A DNA stretch of 64,000 nucleotides from Candidatus Doudnabacteria bacterium (GCA_016218585.1 JACRDK010000030.1:24277-88276), one strand, 5' to 3'. Shown: positions 2,958 through 21,363, numbered from the stretch's first letter. Numbers and translations are program-made. Notes: a model not told the origin generated them from the letters alone.

Positions 2958-5900
2958 ATGAACAACATTTTTTCTAAGTTAAGCATAAAGGTCTCTGGCG
3001 CAATTGGCGTTTCAATTTTTTTGGTTGCCATCGCCGTAATCGGTTTGGCTCCTAGACAAGCCACCATTAGCCGTGCTGATGGTTGCAGTCCGGTTTACAC
3101 CTCGCCGGTTTTTAACCCGTACCCTGTTACCTGGGAAGATTCCGCAGGTTATAACTGTACGGATTTTGCCGTTCTTTCCGGTAATGTCCAAGGCGCAGGT
3201 TTTTGGACTGATAATTTTCAGGCCCAGCCAGGCGACAGTATTAGCATGAGAATTTACGTGCACAACGGCGCGGGCAGCAATTCCGGCGCAGTTATGTACG
3301 GTGTTAATGTTAATACCAATATAGATACCACAACCGGAACCAGCCACGTAATTACTACTACTTTAAGCGCCAGCAATGCCGCTTCTAAAAGCGGTAGTGT
3401 GACTATTAATACTCCGGCCGGCAGCCACTTGGAATTAGTTTCCGGTGATACCAGCTTTGCGGTTGGCGATATGCAGCCGTGCTTTGAGTATTCGAAAGCT
3501 TTTCGGTTTACTTTGAAAGTCGTTGCTGATACTGTTGTTACTCCTCCTCCGGCAGAAACTGTAAGCGGGCAAATTTCCTCTTCTTTGGGAATTTGTAAAG
3601 CCAATGGCTTATACGATGCTAATGTTTCCTGGAATACTAACGCTTCCCAGGCCTTAGTCACTGTTTCCGATCCGAATTTAAACTCCGGCAACTATTACGA
3701 CAATGACAAAGTTTATAGCTACAGCAAAACTAGCAATGAAACCGCAAGTTGGTTAGCTCCTAATACCGCTTACCGTTTTACTTTGTGGTCAATTGACCCA
3801 AGCGGTACAGACCATAGCTTCCGCGACTTAAGCAATAACATTGTTAATGTTAAAGCTGTAAGACTTTATGAAACTTGGGTAACCGCCGGCGCTTCTTGCA
3901 GCCAGGTTACGCCTCCTCCGGCTAATGTTACCGGAACTATTTCCACTTCTCTTGGTATTTGTAAAGCCAATGGTTTATACAATGCCAACGTTTCCTGGAA
4001 TACCAATGCCACTCAAGGTTTGGTTACTGTTTCTGATCCTAACTTAAAATCCGGAGACTACTACGATAACGATAAAATTTATAGCACAGCCGAAACCAGC
4101 AACGAAACTGCTGATTGGTTAGCTCCGTTAACAGCATATCGCTTTACTTTGTGGTCAATTGACCCAAATGGCGTTAGCCACACTTTCCGCGATATGAGCA
4201 ACAATGTTGTAACTTACAAAGTTACCCGTTTGCAGGAATCTTGGGTAACCGCCGGCGCTTCTTGCGACCAGGTTACTCCTCCTCCGGCTAACATTACAGG
4301 AACTATTAATTCTTCTCTTGGCATTTGTAAAGCCAATGGTTTGTACAATGCCAACGTTTCCTGGAATACCAACGCGACTCAGCCGCTTGTTACCGTAAGC
4401 AACCCGCCTGCTAATTCCAATAATAACTACGACAACGATAAATTTTATAGCACCACTAAAACCGGTAATGAAACTGCTGATTGGTTAACCCCAAATACAG
4501 CTTATCGCTTTACTTTGTGGGCTATTGACCCAAATGGCGTAAACCACACTTTCCGTGATTTGAACAATAACGTTGTAACTTACAAAGTTACTCGTTTGCA
4601 GGAAACTTGGGTTACAGCCGGAAATACTTGTATAGATAACCCGCCGACTTATGAAAATGTTGTTTGTAGCGTAAGCCCATCTAACTTAAATGTTGGCCAG
4701 AGCGCTACCTTTACCGCAGACAAAGGCAATGGTACTTATGCTTGGTCTGTTACTGGAGGCTCAGTAACTTCCAGCAATCAAAAAACATTTATTAGCACCT
4801 TCAACAACGCCGGGGCATATATTGCCACCGTGTCCAGCAACGGCAAAACCGCCAGCTGTACTGTTCAGGTAGTTAATGACAATGTTTGTGTAGCAAACAC
4901 CAACTATTATTTAAACGCCACCGCTCCTGCAAAACAAGGAACGGGGTATACTGTAAAATTATCTTGGGGTTTTGATGGTAATCATCAAATTAAATTAACC
5001 CAGGTAAGCTCGGACGGTAGCGAATTAACTTTGGCTACCAGCCCGGACAAAACCGGAAGTTTAAATGTCTTTAATTTACAAGCAGGTAAAACTTATACAT
5101 TTAAAATGTATGATATTGACCCGACTTGTGGAAAGTTTTTAACTTCAACTCAGGTTGTAGTTCAGTCAAATCCGGATCAGTTAGTCTGTACATCCGATAG
5201 CTCTTCCTATAGAGTCGGCGACACCGCTGTCTTTAGAGCCAATGGCGGCAGCGGCAGTTATTCCTGGTCCGGCACCGGCAACCCGGTTTCCGGCACCGGT
5301 TCAGTATTTAATACTTCTTACAACACCGCTGGTAATAAGACTGTTACTGTAACCAGCGCCGACGGGCAAACCGCTCAGTGTAGCACAGTTGTTAATACTG
5401 TTGTTACTGAAAACGGCCAGGTTCGCTTAACCAAAGAAGTAAGAAACATCACCAACAGCGAAACTGCTTTTGCCCACGCGACCTCCGCCAAGCAAAACGA
5501 CACTGTTGAATATCGCATTAAAGTTTGGGCCGGCACTTCCGTAACCTTAACTAATGTTATAGTCAACGACAGCTTTGCTTCCGGTCTTTCTTACATAGAT
5601 AACTCTTTATTTGTAGACGGCACATCTCACGCGGCTGGTTTAACTTCCGGCGGCCTTACCTTTACTTCCGTTGGCCAAACGCCGTTGGTAATTATTTACC
5701 GCGCTAAAGTTACCGCCACTATGGGAACTATTGTAAACACCGCCCAGGCTGTAGCTTCCAACGCTACCAACACTGCTGTTGACCAGGCTTTGGTAAATGT
5801 TGCTTATGTTAATCCGGGACAGCCTTCCTTGTCTATTATTAAACAAGTGAAGAATGTTACCCAGAACACCAACTATGATACTTCGGTTTTGGCTAATAAA

Positions 5901-7289
5901 AATGACGTTGTTAAATACCAGGTCATTATAAAAAATGTCGGCCAAGCTACCGCCAAGAATGTTTTCTTTAACGACAGCAATCCAGCCCAGGTCCAGCCGT
6001 TAACCGGCCTTACTGTCTCCATTGCTTACACCGGCGGCATTCCTGCCGGAGTTGCTTTGGGTGATTTAGCCGCAGGCGCTACCGTGACTATTACTTATCA
6101 GGGAACTGTGAAAGTTGACAGCGGCACTATATTAAACGTAGCCACCGCTTCTTCCGACAACGCAACCAGCCAGAATGCTTCCGCAACAGTAGTTGTTAAT
6201 ACTCAAAACAACAACGGCGGCAACAGCAACTACAACTATTGCGTTAACTATTCCTGCAATACCACAATCAACAACACTACAAACACAACCAACACCACAA
6301 CCACAAATAATAACTACACTTACAACAACTACAGCTACGTTTACATTAACAGCACCGGCAATACTGTACCGGCTAATCAATATAGCCAGTTAAGCATTAC
6401 CAAATCTGTTAGAACTGTAAATAATGGTACTTACCAAAACAGCGTAAACGTAAACAATGGCGATACCGTTGAGTTCGAAATTGTGGTTACTAACTCCGGC
6501 AATCAAAACATAAACAATGTCCGCTTAACCGACAATTTGCCGAGCGGCTTGAATCTGGTAAACGGCAGCGTGCGCGTAGACGGATCTTACGTCTCCAGCA
6601 GCAACCTTTACAGCGGAATGTATTTGGGCAGTTTGTCTACCGGCCAGCAAAAGCGCATTAACTTCCAGGCCACAGTAAACAATTCTAATTCCAGCATTCA
6701 AAATATTGCTATGGTTTCCGGCGACAACGCTTCTTCCGTTCAGGATGATGCCTGGGTGTTTACAAATACGGGTTCTGTCCAGGGCGGCAATGTAAGCCTT
6801 ACTTACAGCAAGCGCGCCATTAACGAAACCAAGAGCCAGGACGCGACTTCTGTAGTTGCCTCCAAGGAAGATTACATTACCTACACCTTAACCGCTTCCA
6901 ACAACGGCAACACTCCGGCCAACAACTTCATTATTACCGATGATTTGTCCCAGGTCTTGCCATATGCCGACATTGTCGACAACGGCGGCGGCAGCGTGAA
7001 CGGAAATGTAATTTCCTTCCCGGGCCTTACTGTTCCGGCTTACGGATCTGTTTCCAGAAGCTTTAAAGTTAGAGTTAAATATTCTTTGGCTGATAACTTG
7101 GCCTATGTTATGACTAATACTTACGGCAACACCTTAAATATTAGAATTAATAACCCGCAGGTTTTGGGAGCCTTTGTTGCTCCGAAGACCGGTGCGGAAA
7201 CCGGCGCCTTTGCTTTCTCCGGATTGTTAACCGCCGCCGCAGCCTTGTTTAAGCGCAGAAAAGAAATTCTAAAGTTAATCTTCACCTAA
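2958..7289 (+). CDS. Giant cell-surface protein (1443 aa): signal anchor, three tandem roughly 120-aa repeats, multiple DUF11-like conserved-repeat domains, Asn/Thr-rich low-complexity region, C-terminal tripartite sorting signal (APKTG/AETG motif, hydrophobic stretch, KRRKE tail)
   Basis: N-terminal TM IGVSIFLVAIAVIGLA. Three near-identical repeats TPPPA..SLGICKANGLY.ANVSWNTNA...AYRFTLWSIDP. DUF11-like units such as VEYRIKVWAGTSVTLTNVIVNDSF, VKYQVIIKNVGQATAKNVFFND and VEFEIVVTNSGNQNINNVRLTDNLP. C-terminus FVAPKTGAETGAFAFSGLLTAAAALFKRRKEILK resembles LPXTG/LAXTG-type cell-wall sorting signals. Confidence 0.85.
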   Translation: MNNIFSKLSIKVSGAIGVSIFLVAIAVIGLAPRQATISRADGCSPVYTSPVFNPYPVTWEDSAGYNCTDFAVLSGNVQGAGFWTDNFQAQPGDSISMRIYVHNGAGSNSGAVMYGVNVNTNIDTTTGTSHVITTTLSASNAASKSGSVTINTPAGSHLELVSGDTSFAVGDMQPCFEYSKAFRFTLKVVADTVVTPPPAETVSGQISSSLGICKANGLYDANVSWNTNASQALVTVSDPNLNSGNYYDNDKVYSYSKTSNETASWLAPNTAYRFTLWSIDPSGTDHSFRDLSNNIVNVKAVRLYETWVTAGASCSQVTPPPANVTGTISTSLGICKANGLYNANVSWNTNATQGLVTVSDPNLKSGDYYDNDKIYSTAETSNETADWLAPLTAYRFTLWSIDPNGVSHTFRDMSNNVVTYKVTRLQESWVTAGASCDQVTPPPANITGTINSSLGICKANGLYNANVSWNTNATQPLVTVSNPPANSNNNYDNDKFYSTTKTGNETADWLTPNTAYRFTLWAIDPNGVNHTFRDLNNNVVTYKVTRLQETWVTAGNTCIDNPPTYENVVCSVSPSNLNVGQSATFTADKGNGTYAWSVTGGSVTSSNQKTFISTFNNAGAYIATVSSNGKTASCTVQVVNDNVCVANTNYYLNATAPAKQGTGYTVKLSWGFDGNHQIKLTQVSSDGSELTLATSPDKTGSLNVFNLQAGKTYTFKMYDIDPTCGKFLTSTQVVVQSNPDQLVCTSDSSSYRVGDTAVFRANGGSGSYSWSGTGNPVSGTGSVFNTSYNTAGNKTVTVTSADGQTAQCSTVVNTVVTENGQVRLTKEVRNITNSETAFAHATSAKQNDTVEYRIKVWAGTSVTLTNVIVNDSFASGLSYIDNSLFVDGTSHAAGLTSGGLTFTSVGQTPLVIIYRAKVTATMGTIVNTAQAVASNATNTAVDQALVNVAYVNPGQPSLSIIKQVKNVTQNTNYDTSVLANKNDVVKYQVIIKNVGQATAKNVFFNDSNPAQVQPLTGLTVSIAYTGGIPAGVALGDLAAGATVTITYQGTVKVDSGTILNVATASSDNATSQNASATVVVNTQNNNGGNSNYNYCVNYSCNTTINNTTNTTNTTTTNNNYTYNNYSYVYINSTGNTVPANQYSQLSITKSVRTVNNGTYQNSVNVNNGDTVEFEIVVTNSGNQNINNVRLTDNLPSGLNLVNGSVRVDGSYVSSSNLYSGMYLGSLSTGQQKRINFQATVNNSNSSIQNIAMVSGDNASSVQDDAWVFTNTGSVQGGNVSLTYSKRAINETKSQDATSVVASKEDYITYTLTASNNGNTPANNFIITDDLSQVLPYADIVDNGGGSVNGNVISFPGLTVPAYGSVSRSFKVRVKYSLADNLAYVMTNTYGNTLNIRINNPQVLGAFVAPKTGAETGAFAFSGLLTAAAALFKRRKEILKLIFT
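3540..4620 (+). repeat. Three tandem roughly 360-bp direct repeats, highly similar at nucleotide level, inside the giant surface protein gene
   Basis: Repeat starts at about 3540, 3900 and 4260 all read gttac(t/g)cctcctccggc...ggaactatt...tctcttgg(t/c)atttgtaaagccaatgg(t/c)ttatacaatgc; the protein units are about 120 aa each. Confidence 0.8.
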
Positions 7290-7299
7290 ACAAAATTGT

Positions 7300-7340
7300 A
7301 AAAACCCCGCCTTTGACTTGCTCAGGGCGGGGTTTTTGTT
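7300..7340 (+). terminator. Rho-independent terminator after the giant surface protein gene
   Basis: aaaaaccccgcc tttgacttgctca gggcggggtttttgttt: a 7-8 bp GC stem followed by a T-run. Confidence 0.8.
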
Positions 7341-7540
7341 TGGGCGCTTGTCAGATGAGTGTAATAACCCTGCCGGTGTCGCCCCGGAATTTTTAGCCTG
7401 CCCGCCGAAGCCTTGGCGAAGTTGGGGGTTGTAAAAATATTCGGGATCCGGAACTTGGCTTAAATACTGGATCCCGGCTCGGGAGCCGGGATGACACCAG
7501 GCTTAGGTTATTGGACTTACGTCTTGCCTGCTTGCATATT
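7341..7540. ncRNA. Candidate structured non-coding RNA of unknown family (GC-rich, multi-hairpin element between a terminator and the next promoter)
   Basis: A roughly 200-nt GC-rich block in an AT-rich intergenic region. Nested helices: cgggatcc...ggatcccg; cccggctc g gagccggg; caggc..gcctg; long-range pairing aataacc/ggttatt and ggtgtc/gacacc enclosing a multi-stem junction. The only ORF (7393-7587 minus) is low-complexity and improbable. No match to SRP RNA, tmRNA, RNase P or tRNA motifs that I could recognise. Confidence 0.35.
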
Positions 7541-7670
7541 TTTTTCCAGATGTTATGATATATACAAATCAAAAAACAAATGAACAAGCGGCAAAATATG
7601 TGCCGTTTTTATTATAAGTAGGATTTTTTTATACCTAGCATCTGTTATCTAATATCTAACATCTAAATTT

Positions 7671-8846
7671 ATGGACAACACATACTTGCAGGAGCTAATA
7701 AACGAAACCAAACTTCGGGGCGGCGGGTTATTGCTTAATTATGAAGATAAGCCGGCTGTGGTTGTTTTAACCGTGGATAAATATAACAGCTTGCTAGAGG
7801 GCCAAGAGTTAGGAATTAAGAATCAAGCGGTTGAAATTCAAACAAGCCCCAAGGCAGAACTAGCCAGTACCCAATCTGTAAAAAAAGTTTTGGTTACCGG
7901 GGGAGCCGGATATATTGGCGGGCATTTGGTTCGGGAGTTAATTAAGCAGAATTATGAAGTGGTGGTTTTAGACAATCTTTCCACCGGCCGCAGGGAGAAT
8001 ATTGATCCGAAGGCAATTTTTGTGGAAGGAGATTTAGCCGATGTAAATTTGCTCCGCGATATTTTTGCCAATAACAACATATCCGCGGTTTTTCATATGG
8101 CCGCCAGCCTGGAAGTGGAAGAGTCTGTTAGGGAACCGGAAAAATATTTTAAAAATAATACCCAAAACACTATCGGACTTTTAGAAGTTATGAAAGAGTT
8201 GGGGATTAACAAAATAATTTTTTCCTCAACCGCCGCGGTTTATGGCGAAAATGCCAAAGTTCCGATTAACGAAAACTCCCCGCTGCATCCCAATAATCCG
8301 TACGGCTCCAGCAAGCTGCTCACCGAAAGGAATATTAAATATTTTTGCGAGTACCTTGGTTTTAAGGCCGTAATTTTCCGCTATTTTAACGCCTGCGGTT
8401 TTGACGAAGAAGCCAATATTTTGCCGACCCACCAGTCTCACTTAATTTACAAAGTTATGCAGGTTGCCAAAGGAGCCGAACCGATTTTAAAAATTTTTGG
8501 CAACGACTACGAAACATTTGACGGTACCTGCATTCGCGATTATGTCCATGTGCTGGATATTGTCTTGCCGCATATTTTGGCTTTGGAAAAGTTAAATGGA
8601 GATTTGAAATTTGAAATTATAAACATTGGCACCGGCACAGGCTTAAGCGTTGCCCAAATTGTCAACGGAGCTTCAGAAATCATCGGCCGCATTATTCCCA
8701 TGGAAACCGCGCCGCGCCGCGCCGGGGACGCGCCGGCAACGGTTGCCGACAACTCCAAACTGGTTAACTTGCTGGGCTATGAGCCTAAATTTAGCAGCCT
8801 AAATAACATACTTACCAGCAGCTGGGAAGTTCTGAAAAAAGATTAA
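7671..8846 (+). CDS. galE: UDP-glucose 4-epimerase / NAD-dependent epimerase-dehydratase with a roughly 70-aa N-terminal extension resembling a Phd/YefM antitoxin fold
   Basis: Rossmann motif VLVTGGAGYIGGHLV, catalytic YGSSKLLTE (YxxxK), C-terminal epimerase domain. N-terminal KPAVVVLTVDKYNSLLEGQEL resembles YefM [20 protein letters not shown]. No in-frame stop or alternative start between extension and epimerase core. Confidence 0.85.
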   Translation: MDNTYLQELINETKLRGGGLLLNYEDKPAVVVLTVDKYNSLLEGQELGIKNQAVEIQTSPKAELASTQSVKKVLVTGGAGYIGGHLVRELIKQNYEVVVLDNLSTGRRENIDPKAIFVEGDLADVNLLRDIFANNNISAVFHMAASLEVEESVREPEKYFKNNTQNTIGLLEVMKELGINKIIFSSTAAVYGENAKVPINENSPLHPNNPYGSSKLLTERNIKYFCEYLGFKAVIFRYFNACGFDEEANILPTHQSHLIYKVMQVAKGAEPILKIFGNDYETFDGTCIRDYVHVLDIVLPHILALEKLNGDLKFEIINIGTGTGLSVAQIVNGASEIIGRIIPMETAPRRAGDAPATVADNSKLVNLLGYEPKFSSLNNILTSSWEVLKKD

Positions 8847-8856
8847 ATTCAAATTA

Positions 8857-8897
8857 AACACCCTTCATAACTATGAGGGGTGTTTAATTTTTTGAAA
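8857..8897 (+). terminator. Rho-independent terminator after galE
   Basis: taaacaccc ttcataactatga ggggtgttta followed by attttttg. Confidence 0.75.
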
Positions 8898-9026
8898 CAA
8901 ATTCACAAGGAAATCGTCATAATAGGAGCAGAGGTTTTTTCTATGTTATAATATATGCAAGGATTTCCTAAAATTTTGGGTAGCTTTGCCCGGGGTTTTA
9001 AGGGCTAGAATAATAAATATAACAAA

Positions 9027-9749
9027 ATGAAAAAACTTTCGGTTATTATACCGGCGTATAATGAAGAACATCGCATAGGCTCCACTTTGGGAGCAATTCA
9101 TAATTATCTTTCCAAGCAAAATTATGAATATGAAATTATCGTTGTTATTGATGGAGCCAAGGACAAGACCGCGGAAGTAGTTTCGGGCATGCAGAGCCAG
9201 ATAAAAAATTTAACGGTTTTAAATAACAAACAAAACCACGGCAAGGGCTGGGTGGTGCGCCAGGGGATGCTTCAGGCTGTTGGCGAGTATAGACTGTTTA
9301 CGGACGCCGACAATTCCACTTCCATTGAGCAAGTAGAAAAGTTTTTTCCGTTTATGAGCCAGGGTTATGATATTGTAATCGGTTCCATAGAAGTTGAGGG
9401 CGCGCAAATAAATGAACACGCCCAGTGGTATAGAAGGTTTTTAGGCCATTGGTCAAAGTTGTTAATTCGCGTGGTTGCCGGAGTCTGGCAAATTCACGAC
9501 ACCCAGCGCGGCTTTAAATTATTTACCGCTAAAGCTGCGGAAAGAATTTTTTTCCAGGCTAAGATTGACCGTTTTGGTTTTGACATAGAAATTCTGGCCG
9601 CTGCCGTAAAGTGCGGCTATAAAATTAAGGAAGTTCCGGTAGTGTGGAATAACGCCGGGGAATCGACAGTTAGTTTAAAAAGTTACCTTGAAGTTTTTAA
9701 AGATTTGCTTCGCGTAAGATGGTACTTATGGACCGGCAAGTATAAATAA
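9027..9749 (+). CDS. Family 2 glycosyltransferase (dolichyl/polyprenyl-phosphate sugar transferase-like)
   Basis: LSVIIPAYNEEHRI at N-terminus, DxD-type motif FTDADNS, typical GT2 (DPM1-like) architecture of about 240 aa. Confidence 0.85.
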   Translation: MKKLSVIIPAYNEEHRIGSTLGAIHNYLSKQNYEYEIIVVIDGAKDKTAEVVSGMQSQIKNLTVLNNKQNHGKGWVVRQGMLQAVGEYRLFTDADNSTSIEQVEKFFPFMSQGYDIVIGSIEVEGAQINEHAQWYRRFLGHWSKLLIRVVAGVWQIHDTQRGFKLFTAKAAERIFFQAKIDRFGFDIEILAAAVKCGYKIKEVPVVWNNAGESTVSLKSYLEVFKDLLRVRWYLWTGKYK

Positions 9750-9753
9750 TTTT

Positions 9754-11640
9754 ATGAAGTTTTTTAGCACACAGCACCAGCATAGTTTCCTTTCAAATTT
9801 GTTAGAAAGTGCGGCAAAGATTTTAAGCTTTGCCGCAGTTTTTGCGTTTATTGCCTCGCCGATTTTTCCCGTAAACTACGCGCTGGCGCAAAAATCCGAA
9901 ACCACTTATATGGTCAAATTAAAAACAGGATTCGGCGAAAACTTGTTAAGCAAAGTCGGCTCAAACATTCGCCACCGTTTTGTTTCCGCCGAGTCGCCGG
10001 TTTTTTATAATATTTATAGTTTTAGTTCCGGTTATTCAGCGGCAGTTTTAACGGACTATTTAAAAAATAAAGCGGAATATTTGGAAGAGCAAAAACCTTT
10101 AGCAGCTTCTTCCGTTTATGTGAACGATCCCGGGTTTTCCACCGATCCGTTAAATATTGATAAACAATGGGCTTTAATAAAGGCGGGTTTTGATAAAGCC
10201 TGGGAAAAAACCACCGGAAGCAAAAGCAATGTTGTGGCGGTAATAGATACAGGAGTAGACGAAACCCACCAGGACTTATCGGCAATTAATTTTGTAAAAG
10301 GTTTTAATTTTATTTCCAACCAGGAAATTGCCACAAGCACCAATTCGGACGACAACGGCCACGGAACATTAGTTACCGGCGTTCTTGGCGCCACCGCAAA
10401 CAACGGTTTGGGAATAATTGGAACCAACTGGCAGATTTCCGTTATGCCTCTTAAAGCGCTTGACGCAAACGGCAAAGGCGAAGCGGCGGATGTGGCCGAA
10501 GCTATTGTTTGGGCCACTGACCACGGCGCGCAGTTTTTAAATATGAGCATTGGCGGCATTGGCTTTGGCCATGACACTACTTTGGCTAACGCCGTTACTT
10601 ACGCCTTTAATAAAAATGTTTTACTGGTGGCGGCCGCCGGAAATGACGTGGCGGCAACAGGCAGCAATTTGGACCAAAGCCCGGTGTTCCCAATTTGCGA
10701 TGATAATAATTTTAATATGGTAATTGGCGTTTCCGCCAGCGATCAAAATGATTTAAAGCCGGACTTTTCCAACTACGGCAGAAATTGCATAGATGTAACA
10801 GCCCCCGGAAAAAGAATTTTGTCCACAATAAATTATGACCCGCTTACAAAAAAAGCATCGCCTAGTTCTTATGCCTATGCTTCCGGAACCTCTTTGGCAG
10901 TGCCTTTTGTGGTCGGCCAAGCCGCTCTAATAAAGGCGCTGTATCCGTTTGCTACTAATATTCAAATACGCGACCGAATAATTACCACTGCAGACCCAAT
11001 TGATAATTTAAATCTTACTCAGTGCGCCGGCGGCCCTTGCCGCGGCCTTTTGGGAACCGGAAGAATTAATGTTTTAAATAGTTTGCAGACCGCGATAGCC
11101 CAGGGGTATGCGGAAGGCGACTTGGTAAAGGAAGAAAGCACCGGGGCAATGTATCAAATAATTGGCGGGCAAAAAAGATTAATTTCCCCATTTGTTTACA
11201 ACCAGCGTTTCAGCGGTTCTAAATTAAAAACTCTTAGCGCCGGGGAATTGGCCTCTTTGCCGGACGGAAGCTATGTTACGCCAAACGACGGCACTCTGGT
11301 AAAGCTGGACTCCGACCCCACGGTATATGTTATTGCCAACGGACAAAAACAGCCCGTGTCGTATCAGGTTTTTTTGCAAAGAAAAATGAATTTTGCCAGC
11401 GTAAACACTTTAAGCTTTTCGGAAGTTAATTCCTGGATTACCGGAAGCTTTTATCCGCCGGAAGAGGGAACCTTGATAAAATCAGATAAAGATAAAACCG
11501 TTTATTGGGTTGTTGGCCAAACCTTGCACCCGATTAACTATGGATTTTTTATGGAGCGGGGTTTGAATGTTTTTCCAATCTTGGTAGTTTCTGAAAAAGA
11601 TATTGTCAGTTTTGCAAAAGGGGAGAGTTATATAAGATAG
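9754..11640 (+). CDS. Secreted subtilisin-like serine protease (peptidase S8) with N-terminal propeptide and three C-terminal roughly 58-aa repeats
   Basis: Catalytic triad motifs VIDTGVDETHQDL (Asp), HGTLVTGVLGA (His), GTSLAVPFVVGQAAL (Ser). Signal peptide. C-terminal repeats GTLVKLDSDPTVYVIANGQKQPVSYQVF... repeated three times. Confidence 0.9.
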   Translation: MKFFSTQHQHSFLSNLLESAAKILSFAAVFAFIASPIFPVNYALAQKSETTYMVKLKTGFGENLLSKVGSNIRHRFVSAESPVFYNIYSFSSGYSAAVLTDYLKNKAEYLEEQKPLAASSVYVNDPGFSTDPLNIDKQWALIKAGFDKAWEKTTGSKSNVVAVIDTGVDETHQDLSAINFVKGFNFISNQEIATSTNSDDNGHGTLVTGVLGATANNGLGIIGTNWQISVMPLKALDANGKGEAADVAEAIVWATDHGAQFLNMSIGGIGFGHDTTLANAVTYAFNKNVLLVAAAGNDVAATGSNLDQSPVFPICDDNNFNMVIGVSASDQNDLKPDFSNYGRNCIDVTAPGKRILSTINYDPLTKKASPSSYAYASGTSLAVPFVVGQAALIKALYPFATNIQIRDRIITTADPIDNLNLTQCAGGPCRGLLGTGRINVLNSLQTAIAQGYAEGDLVKEESTGAMYQIIGGQKRLISPFVYNQRFSGSKLKTLSAGELASLPDGSYVTPNDGTLVKLDSDPTVYVIANGQKQPVSYQVFLQRKMNFASVNTLSFSEVNSWITGSFYPPEEGTLIKSDKDKTVYWVVGQTLHPINYGFFMERGLNVFPILVVSEKDIVSFAKGESYIR

Positions 11641-11712
11641 GGGAAATATTTAGCATATAGCATATAGTATTTAGAATATAGGAGAGAGAATTTAGAATTA
11701 AGAGAGGAGTTT

Positions 11713-13566
11713 ATGAAAAAACAAAAGTACATAAAAATTATTTCCGGACTATTTTTGGTCGTCTTTCCATTTTTGGCAATTGCCCAATCGCCGGACCCAA
11801 ATTTTAATCCAAGCAAGCTTATTGAAGACAAAACTTTTTCCGACACCAAGACTTTTGGCGGCGCTGATGGCATACAAAAATTTTTGGTTGCCAAAAATTC
11901 CGTTCTGGCCAATACCAGCCCGGATTTTTTAGCTAAGCTTAAAGAGCCGCAATCGGTTATGTTAAAAGAAGGTTTGGGAGACCCGCAGCCAAACTTAGGC
12001 CGTTTGCGCACCGCGGCAGAATTAATTTGGGACGCTTCCATTCAGAGCGGCCTTAACCCGCAAGTTATTTTGGTTACCTTAAACAAAGAGCAGGGGTTAA
12101 TAACTTCGGCTAACGATTACGACGCGGCGCGCCTGCAAAAAGCTTTAGATCACGCTATGGGTTTTGATTGTCCGGACTCCAGCGGTTGCGGCAATCTTTT
12201 CCCGGGTTTTTATTTTCAGATTTTTGGCAACTACGATTCGGAAAATAACCGCTATTTAGGCGCGGCAAAATCGTTAATGAAATCTTTTACCACTGTTGGC
12301 GGAAGAGGCCCGGTAGTGGAAGGCGCGGCCGCAAAAGTTGGCCAGGCGATTACTTTAGACAACACTATGGGCGGGTATGAAAATATTATGCCGCAGCAAA
12401 CTTTTATTATTTCCAACAATGCCACGGCCGCGTTGTATCGTTATACCCCGCACGTCTTTAACGGCAACTATAATTTTTGGAAATTTTTTCAAGGCTGGTT
12501 TAAGTATCCAAACGGCACTCTGTTAAAACTTGCCGGCGGCGCGGATTTATACATTATTGAAAATGGCGTTAAGCAGTTGGTGCCGCAATTTGTGGCCCAG
12601 GCCAGGGCGCTAGATGTAAATTCTACCATTACGGTATCGCCAACGGAGTATGACAGCTACACCACAGACAAGCCTTTGGGACCGGTTGATAATACCGTTG
12701 TTCAGGACGCCAGCGGAACAAAGTATGTTTTTATTAGCAACGTCAGGCACCAGGCCTCGGATTTAGTTATTAAACAAAGAGGCTTGGATCCGGCAAAAAC
12801 TTTGAGCATAACCCCGACGGAAGCGGCAATTTTTGACGCCGGTTCGGTCTTGCCGCCTAAAGATGGAACGGTTATTCGCGGCGTTGCAGACCAAAGCGTT
12901 TACTTAGTTGCTAACGGACAAATTAAAATGTTTAGCGCATACACCTTTGCGCAAAATAAAATTAAAGCCAAAGATATTTACACAGTGCCCGACGCGGAAA
13001 TTGCCACCTATAGTAAAAATGGTTTTGTAGCTCCGCTTGACGGCAGCTTGGTAAAGACCGCCTCAAATGGTACGGTTTACTTGGTGGAAAATTCCTTAAA
13101 GCGCCCAATTTTGGCAGACATATTTAAAATTAGAGGGTTTAGCTTTAAAAACGTGAGTGCTATTTCGGAAGATGAAATGAGTTCTTTGCCGATTGGCGCT
13201 TATGCCACGCCGAAGGACAGAACGTTCTTTGCGGTTGATTCCAAAACCGGCCCCTTATATATGTTTAAAGAAGGAACTAAACACAGCATCTCCAGTTTTG
13301 TGGCCAAGCAGCGCGGCATAACTCCGGATTATGTTTTCAGCAACAGCGTGGCAATAGAATGGTATGACGGCATTCCTGTTCCGCCGGCTAACAACACAAT
13401 TATAAAAGGCGATTCCGACCAGACTGTATTCTTGGTTGTTAATGGACAATTAAGGCCGCTCACTTATCAGGCCTTTAAGAATCGCAAAATTACCGCAAAG
13501 AAAATTGTAACTTTGCCTCAAATCGAAGTTGACGCTTACGCCAAAGGCGATACTTTGACCAAGTAG
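11713..13566 (+). CDS. Secreted protein with unknown N-terminal domain and six copies of the same roughly 58-aa repeat found in the upstream S8 protease
   Basis: Signal peptide IISGLFLVVFPFLAIAQS. Repeats begin GTLLKLAGGADLYIIENG, NTVVQDASGTKYVFISN, GTVIRGVADQSVYLVANG, GSLVKTASNGTVYLVENS, RTFFAVDSKTGPLYMFKEG, NTIIKGDSDQTVFLVVNG, each ending in a ...P/PP boundary. Confidence 0.75.
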   Translation: MKKQKYIKIISGLFLVVFPFLAIAQSPDPNFNPSKLIEDKTFSDTKTFGGADGIQKFLVAKNSVLANTSPDFLAKLKEPQSVMLKEGLGDPQPNLGRLRTAAELIWDASIQSGLNPQVILVTLNKEQGLITSANDYDAARLQKALDHAMGFDCPDSSGCGNLFPGFYFQIFGNYDSENNRYLGAAKSLMKSFTTVGGRGPVVEGAAAKVGQAITLDNTMGGYENIMPQQTFIISNNATAALYRYTPHVFNGNYNFWKFFQGWFKYPNGTLLKLAGGADLYIIENGVKQLVPQFVAQARALDVNSTITVSPTEYDSYTTDKPLGPVDNTVVQDASGTKYVFISNVRHQASDLVIKQRGLDPAKTLSITPTEAAIFDAGSVLPPKDGTVIRGVADQSVYLVANGQIKMFSAYTFAQNKIKAKDIYTVPDAEIATYSKNGFVAPLDGSLVKTASNGTVYLVENSLKRPILADIFKIRGFSFKNVSAISEDEMSSLPIGAYATPKDRTFFAVDSKTGPLYMFKEGTKHSISSFVAKQRGITPDYVFSNSVAIEWYDGIPVPPANNTIIKGDSDQTVFLVVNGQLRPLTYQAFKNRKITAKKIVTLPQIEVDAYAKGDTLTK

Positions 13567-13590
13567 ATTAACAAGAGTTGTGAATAAATA

Positions 13591-13624
13591 ACCCCCCCAA
13601 GACAAGTATGTCTTGGGGGGTTTG
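13591..13624 (+). terminator. Rho-independent terminator (12-bp stem) after the repeat-protein gene
   Basis: acccccccaagaca agta tgtcttggggggtttg. Confidence 0.8.
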
Positions 13625-13694
13625 CTTTGACTTTATTGAGGTTTTATAATAAGATTTTGCTACGTTTAGATTTTCAAAAAGGAGGTGTAATCGA

Positions 13695-14282
13695 ATGATT
13701 GCACTGATTAGTGTTACTGACAAAACCGGCATTCAGGAATTTGCCGCCACCCTTTCAGCATTGGGATTCGATCTGGTTTCTACCGGCGGGACAGCAGACA
13801 CTCTTCGCCTCGCCGGGCTTAAAGTAAAAGATGTTTCGGAGCTGACGGGCGTGCCCGCAATGATGGGCGGCAGAGTGAAGACCTTGGATTACCACATTCA
13901 CGCCGGAATCTTGGCGGATCGGGACAATCCGGAGCACATGGCCGATGCCGCAAAGTATGGCATCGAGATGATTGACCTGGTTGTGGTTAACCTCTATGAT
14001 TTTTTGGGTACAGCGGAAGATCCGGATGTTTCTTTGCCGGAACTTACCGAAAGCATCGACATTGGCGGACACACTCTGGTCCGTGCCGCGGCTAAGAACT
14101 GGAAGCATGTCGGTGTGGTGGTTAACCTGCAGGACTACGACCGGATTTCTGAAGAGCTGGTGCAGCGGGGTGGCTGGTTGAGCAGCGGCACCAAGTTAAG
14201 TTTGGCCATTGAGGCCCTCGATGCCGTCGCTTGTTATGACAGGTCTATTCCAGACGTTCTCAGGGACCGTGCCGGCTACTAG
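13695..14282 (+). CDS. purH: Stand-alone IMP cyclohydrolase / MGS-like domain corresponding to the N-terminal half of PurH (AICAR transformylase domain absent); GC-rich, with degenerate conserved motifs, so a possible decaying horizontally acquired fragment
   Basis: ALISVTDKTGIQEFAATLSALGFDLVSTGGTADTL, GRVKTLDYHIHAGILADRDNPEH, VVVNLYDF, IDIGGHTLVRAAAKNWKHVGVVVNLQDY align to the PurH IMPCH domain (actinobacterial-type HAGLLAD). The conserved KTLHP and NLYPF motifs are altered to KTLDY and NLYDF. About 55% GC against about 40% in neighbours. Own promoter-like TTGACT/TATAAT and a strong SD aaggaggtg 7 nt before ATG. Confidence 0.8.
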   Translation: MIALISVTDKTGIQEFAATLSALGFDLVSTGGTADTLRLAGLKVKDVSELTGVPAMMGGRVKTLDYHIHAGILADRDNPEHMADAAKYGIEMIDLVVVNLYDFLGTAEDPDVSLPELTESIDIGGHTLVRAAAKNWKHVGVVVNLQDYDRISEELVQRGGWLSSGTKLSLAIEALDAVACYDRSIPDVLRDRAGY

Positions 14283-14305
14283 CAAATCACAGCAGTCTAT
14301 CTAAC

Positions 14306-14345
14306 AAAGCGGTTCCCGGAAATAGTGTTCGGGAACCGCTTTTGC
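14306..14345 (+). terminator. Rho-independent terminator after the purH-fragment cassette
   Basis: aaagcggttcccg gaaatagtgtt cgggaaccgcttttgc. Confidence 0.8.
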
Positions 14346-14385
14346 TATGTATTAGATTCACTAAAGGTGTGGTAAAATAAATGGT

Positions 14386-15825
14386 ATGAGTACACATATT
14401 AGTAAAAATATTTTTTGGCTGACGGCTTCGCGCTTGTTGGCTTTGGTTTTTTTGTTTGTCGCGTACACGAGGCTATTTCGTTATTTAGGGCCTTACTTTT
14501 CCGGACAGTACCAGTTTGTTTTGTCTTATGTCTTAATTTTTGCGACCATTGTCGACTTTGGCATCCAGCAGTTTATTACAAAAAAAATTAGCGAGGAACC
14601 GCAAAATACAAAAAAATATTTTCAGGATTTCTTCAGCTTTGAAGTTTTGGCCGCGGCAGGGCTGTATATAATTTTGGTGTCTTTGGCTTACTTTAAGGCC
14701 TACGACAGGGAAGTCTTTTACGCAATTTGCGTTGCGGGTTTGGGACTGGTGGCAAATGCCTTAACTTATCCGTACTTAGCGGTAATGGCCGCATTTCAGG
14801 ATATGCGCAAAGTGGCTTTAATAAACTTTTTAAATTCTCTGGTCAATATTGCCGTAATTTTTTCCGCTATAATTTTTCATAAGCATATTGTTTTTTTGGC
14901 CAGCGTGCAGCTGGTTTTTGGCCTGTTAGACTTAATTTTATATAGATTTTTTGTTACTAAACACTTGCCTGAGCCGGAAGTGCTTAAAGCCGTATTTAGC
15001 TTTAACTTAAAACCTATTTGGGAAATTCTGCGGCAGGGCTGGCCATTTGCTTTATTGGTTGGCTTTAGTGCGATATATAACCGCATCGATGTTTTGTTAA
15101 TTACCTTTTTAAAAGGTTTTGAACAAACGGGTTATTATACCGCGGCTTACAAAATTTTTGATCTGTTGGGCTTTTTTCCTTCCGTTGTATCTTATACTTT
15201 ATTTCCTTTCTTTGCCGGCTTAATGTCTAAAAAAGCATTGGGCGAAGTTAAAATTAATTTAGAAAAATATTTAAAGTTAATGATTCTGGCAGCGCTGCCA
15301 ATGGCGGTGGGCGGCAGCGTGCTTTCGGCTAAGTTAATTGCCTTAGTTGCCGGTCCGGAATACGCGCCGGCGGCTTCTGTGTTGGCAATTTTAATTTGGG
15401 CTCCGGCGATTCTGTTTATTTACATTCCCGCTAATTCTTTGGTCATTTCCCAACTGACCAAAAAAGCTTTAATGGTAACAGGGGCTAATGTGGTAATAAA
15501 TACAATCGGCAATTTGCTGCTCTTGCCCCATTACGGAATAAAAGCGGCGGCTATTATGACTGTTGTTTCCGAAGCCTTGCAGGGGATATTTTATTTTTAT
15601 TTCATTAGAAAAAATATTACACACTTCAGCTTTAAAGGTTTGTGGGCAAAACCATTGCTGGCCGCCGCGGTAATGGGAGCTTGTTTGTGGCCGCTAAGGC
15701 AATTGCCCCTGGTTTACACCATACCGGTCGGGGGAGCGGTTTATTTAATCATGTTATTGCTTACCGGATTTGTCGGCAAAGCCGATTTGGCCATGGCAAA
15801 AAATTTAGTTAAGCCGGCAAATTAA
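14386..15825 (+). CDS. Polysaccharide biosynthesis flippase (Wzx / MOP superfamily), multi-pass membrane protein
   Basis: 479 aa with about 12-14 predicted TM helices; N-terminal SRLLALVFLFVAYTRLFRYLGPYFSGQYQFV typical of the Polysacc_synt family. Confidence 0.8.
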   Translation: MSTHISKNIFWLTASRLLALVFLFVAYTRLFRYLGPYFSGQYQFVLSYVLIFATIVDFGIQQFITKKISEEPQNTKKYFQDFFSFEVLAAAGLYIILVSLAYFKAYDREVFYAICVAGLGLVANALTYPYLAVMAAFQDMRKVALINFLNSLVNIAVIFSAIIFHKHIVFLASVQLVFGLLDLILYRFFVTKHLPEPEVLKAVFSFNLKPIWEILRQGWPFALLVGFSAIYNRIDVLLITFLKGFEQTGYYTAAYKIFDLLGFFPSVVSYTLFPFFAGLMSKKALGEVKINLEKYLKLMILAALPMAVGGSVLSAKLIALVAGPEYAPAASVLAILIWAPAILFIYIPANSLVISQLTKKALMVTGANVVINTIGNLLLLPHYGIKAAAIMTVVSEALQGIFYFYFIRKNITHFSFKGLWAKPLLAAAVMGACLWPLRQLPLVYTIPVGGAVYLIMLLLTGFVGKADLAMAKNLVKPAN

Positions 15826-19438: not shown

Positions 19439-20425
19439 ATGCCAAAAGTTGTTATTGTTCAGGTAATATATAATACAAAGAAATTTATTGAGCCGGTGTT
19501 CGGCGCAATTTTTAACCAAACGCACAAAAATTTTGAAGTTGTGGCTGTAATTTCCGGCAACGATGACGGCGGTAAAGAATTGCTCATGCAAAAGTTTCCG
19601 CAGGTAAAGATAATCGATCCCGGCTATAATATAGGTTTTGCCAAGGGCCATAATTTGGTTTTTTCCCAATTTAGCGCGGACTTCTATCAGTTGGTAAATC
19701 CGGATTTTATTATGGAACCGGATTATGTTGAACAGATATTAAAAGTTTTTCAAGATGAAAAAATTGGAGCGGCAACCGGAAAACTGTACCAATTTAAAGA
19801 TTTAAGATTTAAGATTGAAGATTTTAGAAGCAATAAAATTTTAGACACAACTGGGGTCACTATTGGCAAATCAGGAAGAGCAAGGGATAGGGGGCAGCAC
19901 GAAGAAGACAGGGGGCAATATGATAAGAGTACAAATATACAAGCTGTCTCAGCGGCCGGCGCAATGTATCGCGCCTCCGCCCTACAAGCTACAAGCTACA
20001 AGCTACAAACTAGAGTAGAATTTTTTGACGAAGACTTCCATTCTTATTGGGAAGATGTGGATTTGGCCTGGCGGATGAGCAATGCCGGTTGGCAGTGCAA
20101 GTTTGCGCCCTTGGCTGTTGGTTATCATGGCAGGGGAGCAGGGTCTTCCAAAAACGGTTATATGGATGTTGCGGGGTTTGTTAAACACCACAAGACATTG
20201 TCGCCAAGGATCAGGCAGTTAAATTATCAAAACCACATTTTAATGTATGTAAAAAACAGTCCGTGGTTTTATCCGCAGTTTTTTGTCAGGGAATTTTTTA
20301 TGCTTGGCTATATTTTACTTTTTGAAATTAGCACATTAAAAGTTTTGCCGCAGATGCTCCGGCTGCTGCCAAGAATTTGGGAAAAAAGAAAGCTAATAAT
20401 TGATTCCACTCATTCACGGCCGTGA
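19439..20425 (+). CDS. Family 2 glycosyltransferase
   Basis: N-terminal VVIVQVIYNTKKFIEPVFGAIFNQTHKNFEVVAV and D..D motifs; contains an in-frame (tacaagc)x3 microsatellite at about 19983-20006. Confidence 0.8.
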   Translation: MPKVVIVQVIYNTKKFIEPVFGAIFNQTHKNFEVVAVISGNDDGGKELLMQKFPQVKIIDPGYNIGFAKGHNLVFSQFSADFYQLVNPDFIMEPDYVEQILKVFQDEKIGAATGKLYQFKDLRFKIEDFRSNKILDTTGVTIGKSGRARDRGQHEEDRGQYDKSTNIQAVSAAGAMYRASALQATSYKLQTRVEFFDEDFHSYWEDVDLAWRMSNAGWQCKFAPLAVGYHGRGAGSSKNGYMDVAGFVKHHKTLSPRIRQLNYQNHILMYVKNSPWFYPQFFVREFFMLGYILLFEISTLKVLPQMLRLLPRIWEKRKLIIDSTHSRP

Positions 20426-20457: not shown

Positions 20458-21363
20458 ATGGATTTATCAATTGTAATTTTATCTTATCGGTCAAAAAAAG
20501 ATTTAGAACGGCTTTTGCCTTCTGTTTTTGCATCGCAGACCAAATATTCATTTGAAGTTATTGTTGTTGATAACGGCTCAAACGACGGAACGTATGAGTG
20601 GGTGCAAGCATATAGCAACCAGCATCTAGCATATAGTATCAAGCTAATTCGAAATACAAACACGGGGTTTTCAGCGGGTAATAACTTAGGGATTAAGCAG
20701 GCTAGCGGAAAATACATTCTGTTGCTTAACCCGGATACTGAAATAGAGAGCAATACTTTTGAGGTTATGCTGGATTTTATGGAAAGCCATCCCGATGTTG
20801 GCATAAGCGGTTGTAAAGTATTAAAGCCTGACGGCAGTTTGGATTTAGCCTGCCGCAGAAAATTTCCAAATCCATGGAATAGTTTTAAAAGATTATTTTT
20901 ACTTTCCAATTCAGACTATAATTTAACCGGGAAAGATGTAAATCAAGAAATGGAAATTGATTCGGTAATGGGAGCATTTTTGTTAATTCGGAATTTTGGA
21001 AAATCAGAAAATCAGAGAGTTGGAGAGACGGACTTCCGACTTCCGAGTGGTGATTATCTAGATGAAGAGTTCTTTATGTATGGCGAGGATTTAGATTTAT
21101 GCTGGCGCTGCAAGGAGGCTGGCTGGAAAGTTTGGTATTATCCAAAAACTTCCATTACCCACTATAAGGGCTCGTCTTCCGCTAAAATTGCCTTTCGCGC
21201 CTTAAAGTGGTTTCATGACGCGATGTGGATTTTTTATCGCAAGCACTATAAAAATAAATATCCTTTTTTCTTCAATTGGCTGGTCTTTTTGGGGATTTAC
21301 GCAAGGCTTGGGGTGTTGTGGGCAATAAACTCTTTAAAAAGCAAACCGCGGGTAAGCAGCTAA
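20458..21363 (+). CDS. Family 2 glycosyltransferase
   Basis: LSIVILSYRSKKDLERLL...VIVVDNGSNDGT, a typical GT2 N-terminus; DxD. Confidence 0.85.
   Translation: MDLSIVILSYRSKKDLERLLPSVFASQTKYSFEVIVVDNGSNDGTYEWVQAYSNQHLAYSIKLIRNTNTGFSAGNNLGIKQASGKYILLLNPDTEIESNTFEVMLDFMESHPDVGISGCKVLKPDGSLDLACRRKFPNPWNSFKRLFLLSNSDYNLTGKDVNQEMEIDSVMGAFLLIRNFGKSENQRVGETDFRLPSGDYLDEEFFMYGEDLDLCWRCKEAGWKVWYYPKTSITHYKGSSSAKIAFRALKWFHDAMWIFYRKHYKNKYPFFFNWLVFLGIYARLGVLWAINSLKSKPRVSS

Follow-up and report, generated by a model that had tools for sequence, protein, structure and literature searches.

The 64,000-nucleotide stretch of Candidatus Doudnabacteria DNA analyzed here (GCA_016218585.1 JACRDK010000030.1:24277-88276; the whole of it is called the window below) contains a galE gene in which a UDP-glucose 4-epimerase is preceded, in the same reading frame, by a small domain resembling the N-terminal domains of the Phd/YefM antitoxins and by a linker (Table 1). 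The gene begins with an ATG, has an in-frame stop six codons 5′ of it, and encodes a protein identical to MBI5530868.1 (P0004 in our list of relatives), which comes from a Candidatus Doudnabacteria metagenome-assembled genome and is annotated merely as "UDP-glucose 4-epimerase GalE". A preliminary description of this DNA had proposed that an N-terminal module is fused in frame to GalE and that no alternative ATG, GTG or TTG lies near the core, and both statements are borne out, the first by the single open reading frame (ORF) and its conservation in relatives, the second by the distribution of potential starts, which occur at codons 1, 6, 21, 30, 35 and 41, and next only at 74 and 86. As codon 74 (a TTG) falls within the first Rossmann strand, there is no usable start from codon 42 to the core. 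The ATG at 7671 lacks a Shine-Dalgarno sequence; because such a motif lies upstream of just 12 of the 50 predicted genes in the window, most other starts being preceded by A/T-rich sequence, its absence is uninformative about the start, and we have rejected it as an argument against this ATG.

The enzyme portion matches the NCBIfam equivalog model TIGR01179 (galE) at 369.7 bits (cutoff, 262.3), with residues 72–387 aligned to model positions 1–324 of 332, and PF01370 (Epimerase) in Pfam at 193 bits over residues 73–320. The sequence KKVLVTGG starts at residue 71/72 and the Rossmann motif TGGAGYIG occupies residues 76–83 (with the NAD motif GGAGYIG at 77–83), while FSSTAAVYG at 184–192 and YGSSK at 211–215 (Y211 and K215) correspond to the catalytic Ser/Thr...YxxxK motifs of the extended short-chain dehydrogenases/reductases; the GxxGxxG, FSSTAAVYG and YGSSK positions are invariant or nearly so across 100 relatives. 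From our own motif alignment to S124 of the E. coli enzyme, T187 is the probable catalytic hydroxyl. The best explanation is that the core encodes a functional UDP-glucose 4-epimerase, with the enzyme apparently intact. It resembles canonical bacterial GalE (TIGR01179, about 325–340 aa) in its full-length core above the equivalog cutoff, in its GxxGxxG and YxxxK motifs, and in the surface-glycan gene neighborhood of the window gene, but differs by the 71-residue N-terminal addition, a folded domain followed by a disordered linker, which is absent from the GalE proteins of other phyla and from one close relative, P0110. We note that the nucleotide-binding motifs are altered (VLVIGGGGAAITTH and VLVIGGAGRVGS are examples) in the most divergent of the fused proteins, P0133, P0136 and P0138 (about 30–36% identity), all of which keep the N-domain; their cofactor or their function may have changed.

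Conservation of the fusion

Clustering at 90% identity leaves more than 100 clusters of proteins, 380–416 aa long, that have this architecture. The N-domain has the consensus MDNxYLQELIxEAxxRGGGLxLNxxxKPAVVVLTVEKYNxLL and is followed by a variable linker and then by K[VI]LVTGGAGYIG. All but one of the best 120 relatives listed have the extension, a dozen of them being called from an internal methionine inside it; precomputed Pfam lists omit the domain for nearly all of the fused proteins, and in public annotation they are plain GalE. When each GTDB species was represented by one genome, a scan yielded 31 fused loci, labeled mostly Doudnabacteria or Patescibacteria, and metagenomes provided seven more. 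In all 31 GTDB loci, one of which is truncated by a contig end, the domain and the GalE core form one ORF that begins M/V-D-N and has an in-frame stop 1–33 codons upstream. The preliminary description had left two arrangements in view for the orthologues, the same extension or a separate small upstream ORF, and it is the first that is found; a split gene or separate upstream Phd ORF was sought and is present in none of the 31 GTDB loci, the seven metagenome loci or the locus of the unfused relative. When codons 2–42 are compared with those of the window gene, pN is 0.15–0.35 and pS is saturated at about 0.8, and by this measure the extension is under purifying selection, a conserved and evidently translated part of the protein.

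A homologue search with the 72-residue extension alone returned just three proteins, reflecting a word index limit, and an exhaustive search of 1.84 billion representative proteins with a hidden Markov model (HMM) of 83 domains matched 24 proteins. Of these, one is a 61-residue stand-alone protein, P0144, and three are giant repetitive proteins; the rest are fused GalE proteins or fragments of such fusions. Apart from these four exceptions, the subfamily in this HMM search is exclusive to GalE.

Could the extension be an artefact of a mis-called start or a faulty assembly, untranslated, with the true GalE beginning at the Rossmann strand? The lack of a Shine-Dalgarno sequence at the ATG could be cited in favor of this, as could the methionine that about one-quarter of the orthologues retain 5–8 residues ahead of the core. 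However, Shine-Dalgarno sequences are rare in the window anyway, the window gene offers no start from codon 42 to the core, selection on the extension at the protein level is strong, and more than 100 independent assemblies carry the fusion. We give this explanation practically no credence, and an assembly or annotation artefact as the source of the fusion is effectively refuted. The methionines at 5–8 residues before the Rossmann strand occur in 30 of 120 fused orthologues (about 25%, including P0012, P0026, P0041, P0072, P0087 and P0094), most commonly at −5 and −7, and are absent from the window protein. They could be vestiges of an ancestral GalE start, and internal initiation could be possible in those species.

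The unfused relative P0110 (L036, 3001–3975) is a plain GalE of 324 aa (MNSKKVLVTGG...) without the N-domain. Its core is 64–66% identical, its locus has the same order of genes, and no small ORF was found upstream. By identity to the window protein it ranks 52 of 127 relatives, and the fused members diverge to less than 40%; this suggests, from an identity ranking and not a phylogeny, that P0110 has secondarily lost the domain. Because so close a relative does without it, the N-domain would appear to be dispensable for catalysis.

Relationship to Phd/YefM antitoxins

The sole Pfam match of the extension is to PF02604 (PhdYeFM_antitox), with residues 18–47 aligned to profile positions 25–53 at an E value of 0.0036 and 17.5 bits, under the gathering cutoff of 29.8 bits. 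Within the family, 78 of the 83 N-domains match this profile at E ≤ 1, below threshold and with a best E value of 5.8e-7, and the two best full-length relatives reach 24.9 and 25.1 bits with alignments starting at profile position 13. The stand-alone P0144 is above the cutoff at 39.1 bits, and hhalign aligns the family profile with it at a probability of 97.6%. These results support the proposal, made in the preliminary description, that residues 27–47 (KPAVVVLTVDKYNSLLEGQEL) resemble the YefM/Phd core. The alignment register proposed there was moreover reproduced by hhalign, which places residues 20–43 on residues 27–50 of E. coli YefM (a sequence 100% identical to 2A6Q_A) with an E value of 1.3e-4 and a probability of 54%. 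AlphaFold2 run on the domain alignment predicts, with a pLDDT of 86.9, a helix at residues 3–15, strands at 19–24 and 27–33, and a second helix at 35–51, which is the helix-strand-strand-helix fold of Phd/YefM (the β2-β3 hairpin followed by helix α3). In a full-length AlphaFold model the pLDDT is about 90 for the N-domain, less than 50 for the linker (residues 50–65) and about 97 for the core; both predictions are of monomers.

Other searches were negative. Foldseek with a 52-residue query gave nothing at E ≤ 0.001, the top TM-scores (0.64–0.66) being with antitoxin chains, the same family included; no YefM match turned up when PDB sequences were searched with the N-domain, whether as a profile or as a single sequence; and hhalign of the family against P1 Phd was insignificant. 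A search with P0144 returned P0144 only, so that a multi-sequence Phd profile could not be built. If the first three results are taken together with the Pfam scores, all of which (17.5–25 bits) are under the gathering cutoff, a case can be made that this is a lineage-specific helix-strand-strand-helix domain that has arisen by convergence and does not descend from Phd/YefM. We think that quite improbable, because several independent signals agree on one register; remote homology to the YefM branch is well supported, although no single significant score proves it.

The Phd, YefM and Mycobacterium RelB1-RelB2-RelJ antitoxins (PF02604, type II toxin-antitoxin systems) share with the fusion N-domain its helix-strand-strand-helix core and register, the Y-N motif that opens the last helix, the hydrophobic positions and strand β3. 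The fusion differs from them in its sub-cutoff Pfam scores, in its covalent join to a 320-residue enzyme, and in the absence of several elements on which antitoxin function depends. In both the Pfam and the hhalign alignments the register is ungapped, residue i of the fusion being equivalent to YefM residue i+7. Strand β1, which lies at the outside of the six-stranded sheet of the dimer, is without a counterpart because Met1 sits opposite YefM residue 8; the domain begins at about position 8 of the Pfam profile, and the upstream stops lie at the distance given above in all loci. When YefM is bound to DNA, its Arg10 and Gln11 read operator bases and its β2-β3 loop contacts the minor groove (PMC7544224). 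At the Arg10 position the fusions have N3 (an asparagine in 68 of 83, and never an arginine), the Gln11 position is the variable residue 4, and the β2-β3 loop is acidic ([ED][DN]K-P); the stand-alone P0144 keeps an arginine at the Arg10 position. Where antitoxins have their toxin-binding C-terminal region, after the last helix, the fusions have a non-conserved linker of 6–64 residues (median 23) rich in K, A, Q, S, T, E and P. No toxin gene of the YoeB, Doc, RelE or ParE type is found among the neighbors in the window or in the orthologous loci. Because β1, Arg10/Gln11, the toxin-binding C-terminus and a toxin neighbor are all absent, the functional marks of an antitoxin are lacking, and the N-domain, judged from its sequence, is not an antitoxin. 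The preliminary description spoke of a DNA-binding or antitoxin-like module; of this the Phd/YefM fold core stands, and the antitoxin features do not.

What has been kept includes positions equivalent to those of the YefM dimer interface. The S. aureus YefM dimer is held by β3-β3′ hydrogen bonds and by L13, L16, V20, V27 and V29, with β1 as the outermost strand (PMC7544224). These residues (the numbering is common to S. aureus and E. coli YefM) map to L6 (83 of 83), L9 (81 of 83), A13, L20 and L22 (80 of 83) of the fusions, and little or no variation is seen in β3, at V30-V31-V32-L33, or in the Y38-N39 motif. Loss of the edge strand would leave the dimer interface intact. Further nearly invariant features are on the surface, namely MDN at residues 1–3, E12, and R16-G-G-G.

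The galE leader and its neighborhood

Table 1. Features of the galE locus, with positions counted from the first nucleotide of the window.
Feature	Position	Strand	Description
Complete ORF	7671..8846	+	391 aa plus stop; Phd/YefM-like N-domain, linker and GalE
N-terminal domain	7671..7817	+	Residues 1-49; helix 3-15, strands 19-24 and 27-33, helix 35-49; Phd/YefM-fold core without strand β1
Linker	7818..7883	+	Residues 50-71; predicted to be disordered; always in frame
GalE core	7884..8843	+	Residues 72-391; extended short-chain dehydrogenase/reductase
Promoter-like site	7532..7559	+	TTGCAT-16 nt-TGtTATGAT; read by eye; equivalent in most orthologous loci
Leader element	7565..7622	+	A/C-rich run, hairpin (stem 7586-7608), U-run; terminator-like; between promoter-like site and ATG
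Heptanucleotide tandem repeat	7645..7667	+	ATCTGTT ATCTAAT ATCTAAC ATCTAAA; directly 5′ of ATG; TRF 7646-7666, period 7

A second conserved component of these loci lies in the leader. All fused loci with enough upstream sequence have, in order, a terminator of the upstream gene, a promoter-like TTGCAT/TTGACA-16/17-TGnTATTAT sequence, an A/C-rich run, a hairpin, a U-run, 6–290 nt of further sequence and the ATG. The promoter-like site in the window was not listed by a consensus scan because its −35 hexamer matches at only three of six positions; the hairpin was called terminator-like by a site scan. The leader element is present in 32 of 32 loci; it sits ahead of the fused gene in the window and in L005–L035, L038–L043 and L071. 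The top of the hairpin, CAGC/GCUG, is nearly invariant among fused loci with enough upstream sequence. In an alignment of 32 hairpin sequences, 89.6% of cells are paired, as against no more than 66.7% when the partners are slid, and four pairs show compensatory changes, with none of 500 shuffles attaining the covariation score. A covariance model recovered six held-out fused loci at 35–46 bits, finds exactly one site in the window, and gave no match in some 70 loci of other phyla whose GalE is unfused; the hairpin in the P0110 leader has a different stem. No Rfam family matches the leader, and apart from the hairpin the leader as a whole is not unusually structured (z = −0.42). The element, which has the support of covariation, appears to be specific to fused galE loci, and may work either as an attenuator close to the promoter or as a 5′ stabilizer.

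The heptanucleotide repeat immediately before the ATG belongs to a wider class, with eight period-7 arrays observed in the window where 0.35 are expected, and no enrichment of other periods. They are at positions 7645, 8597, 11647, 19793, 19980, 23963, 29771 and 45195, and by TRF also at 20607, 22803, 43896 and 53740; some are directly 5′ of start codons and others are within ORFs with the frame intact, such as ATTTAAG (five copies) and CTACAAG (four copies) inside a GT2-like ORF at 19439–20425. They may be contingency (phase-variation) repeats. We considered the repeat 5′ of the galE ATG as an operator for the N-domain and rejected it, since period-7 repeats are found genome-wide, before and inside many other genes. 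Between the upstream terminator and the galE promoter-like site, a segment of about 190 nt (7340–7530) is relatively G+C-rich and contains inverted repeats such as ggatcccggctcgggagccgggatg; it has no convincing ORF, Rfam match or tRNA, and indeed no tRNA is present in the whole window.

The genes around galE form a conserved surface-glycan neighborhood (2958–15825 in the window, and in L001, L003 and L036). Upstream is a gene for a CLIPPER-domain surface protein, downstream are genes for a GT2 glycosyltransferase and an S8 peptidase (subtilase), and further in the neighborhood are a 617-aa protein without assignment and a Wzx-type flippase (Polysacc_synt). The CLIPPER-domain protein is a giant of 1443 aa, with 366-nt internal repeats at 3573–4621 and a C-terminal, anchor-like tail of the PKTG type.

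Possible roles of the N-terminal domain

Because the positions of the YefM dimer interface are conserved while the antitoxin features are lost, we propose that the N-domain is a self-association handle, an exapted module for dimerization, oligomerization or tethering carried on a flexible linker; this is the reading we favor, at a little under even chances. By this proposal the GalE of the Doudnabacteria lineage (Patescibacteria) would have gained an N-terminal module from the dimeric N-domain of a Phd/YefM-type antitoxin, one that retained the helix-strand-strand-helix core together with the hydrophobic and strand residues of the YefM homodimer, and shed the edge strand β1, the base-reading Arg10/Gln11 and the entire toxin-neutralizing C-terminal region, the last giving way to a disordered linker that varies in length and leads into the Rossmann fold. 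Dimerization of the domain, and any effect of it on the enzyme, we infer. The handle might serve as a clamp on the GalE dimer, might join such dimers into larger assemblies close to the surface-glycan machinery specified by the adjacent genes, or might localize GalE; it would have no role as an antitoxin or as an operator reader of the YefM type.

Several considerations weigh against this proposal. The conserved hydrophobic positions also make up the core of the monomer and hence are no proof of dimerization, and characterized GalE enzymes are already homodimers, so that the gain from a second dimerization module is hard to see. Pure dimerization would also not seem to account for the near-invariance of MDN, E12 and R16-G-G-G, and the conserved hairpin in the leader of the gene may leave room for a regulatory role involving nucleic acid binding. 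Net charge (or pI), which we tried as a test of DNA binding, is uninformative and does not discriminate, as the mean is −2.4 and the N-domain of E. coli YefM is acidic too.

Such a regulatory role has precedents in the trigger enzymes, metabolic enzymes that carry an added DNA- or RNA-binding domain and take part in gene regulation, as in PutA with its ribbon-helix-helix domain. The galE fusion is like these in having a small dimeric domain of antitoxin/repressor type joined by a linker at the N-terminal side of a metabolic enzyme, but differs from them in having lost the residue that is central to DNA reading in its parent family. In this alternative, the N-domain would bind DNA at its own promoter or leader, or the leader hairpin as RNA, and feed back on galE expression, possibly in dependence on UDP-sugar or NAD state. 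It gains from the fact that Phd/YefM N-domains are DNA-binding autorepressor domains (PMC7544224), from the near invariance of D2, N3, E12 and R16 at the surface, and from the conserved element between promoter and ATG with its near-invariant CAGC/GCTG stem top at every fused locus with sufficient upstream sequence, of which the sole unfused close relative lacks the CAGC/GCTG version. That last comparison, however, rests on one unfused case, and with a single such relative in the data the co-occurrence of hairpin and N-domain is powerless as a test; the hairpin stem in the window itself differs (CGGCA/TGCCG) in spite of a typical N-domain. Moreover, the spacing of the CAGC and GCTG arms (6–24 nt) and the covariation of the lower stem fit an RNA hairpin and not an operator for a dimer, the replacement of Arg10/Gln11 by N3 and a variable residue, the absence of β1 and the acidity of the loop that in YefM contacts the minor groove all speak against DNA reading, and the heptamer repeats beside the ATG are a genome-wide feature. 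We therefore consider feedback of this kind unlikely, and the fuller version of it, in which GalE is a self-regulating trigger enzyme that binds its own leader hairpin (as RNA or DNA), couples UDP-sugar status to read-through and, within a reduced genome, replaces a dedicated transcription factor, is less likely still.

Alternatively, the truncated domain could be a docking module that recruits GalE to a partner through strand complementation or heterodimerization, and the partner could be either a component of the neighboring glycosylation system or a genuine protein of the Phd/YefM family. The absence of β1, which exposes an edge of the sheet, would suit such a role, as would the flexible linker, which is typical for tethering, and the conserved order of genes for the CLIPPER-domain protein, GalE, the GT2 glycosyltransferase, the S8 peptidase and the protein of about 617 aa, with the flippase nearby. 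However, no partner candidate was identified (no test for co-varying neighbors was made), the unfused relative has the same gene order without the domain, and the linker that stands in place of the toxin-binding region is not conserved, and we hold docking, too, to be an improbable explanation in comparison with self-association.

The Phd/YefM-GalE architecture is widespread and made of two known domains, and searches of the literature open to searching found no description of it. It represents the exaptation of a building block of toxin-antitoxin systems, the dimeric N-domain of Phd/YefM without its toxin-binding tail and its DNA-reading arginine, and the domain has become fixed on a housekeeping sugar-nucleotide enzyme throughout a lineage of ultra-small bacteria (Doudnabacteria, Patescibacteria). 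The leader hairpin adds an unreported, GalE-specific candidate for a cis-regulatory element. If the domain serves in self-association only, the fusion would be a modest structural curiosity; if it is true that nucleic acid binding persists, these bacteria, with their reduced genomes, would possess a hybrid of enzyme and regulator.
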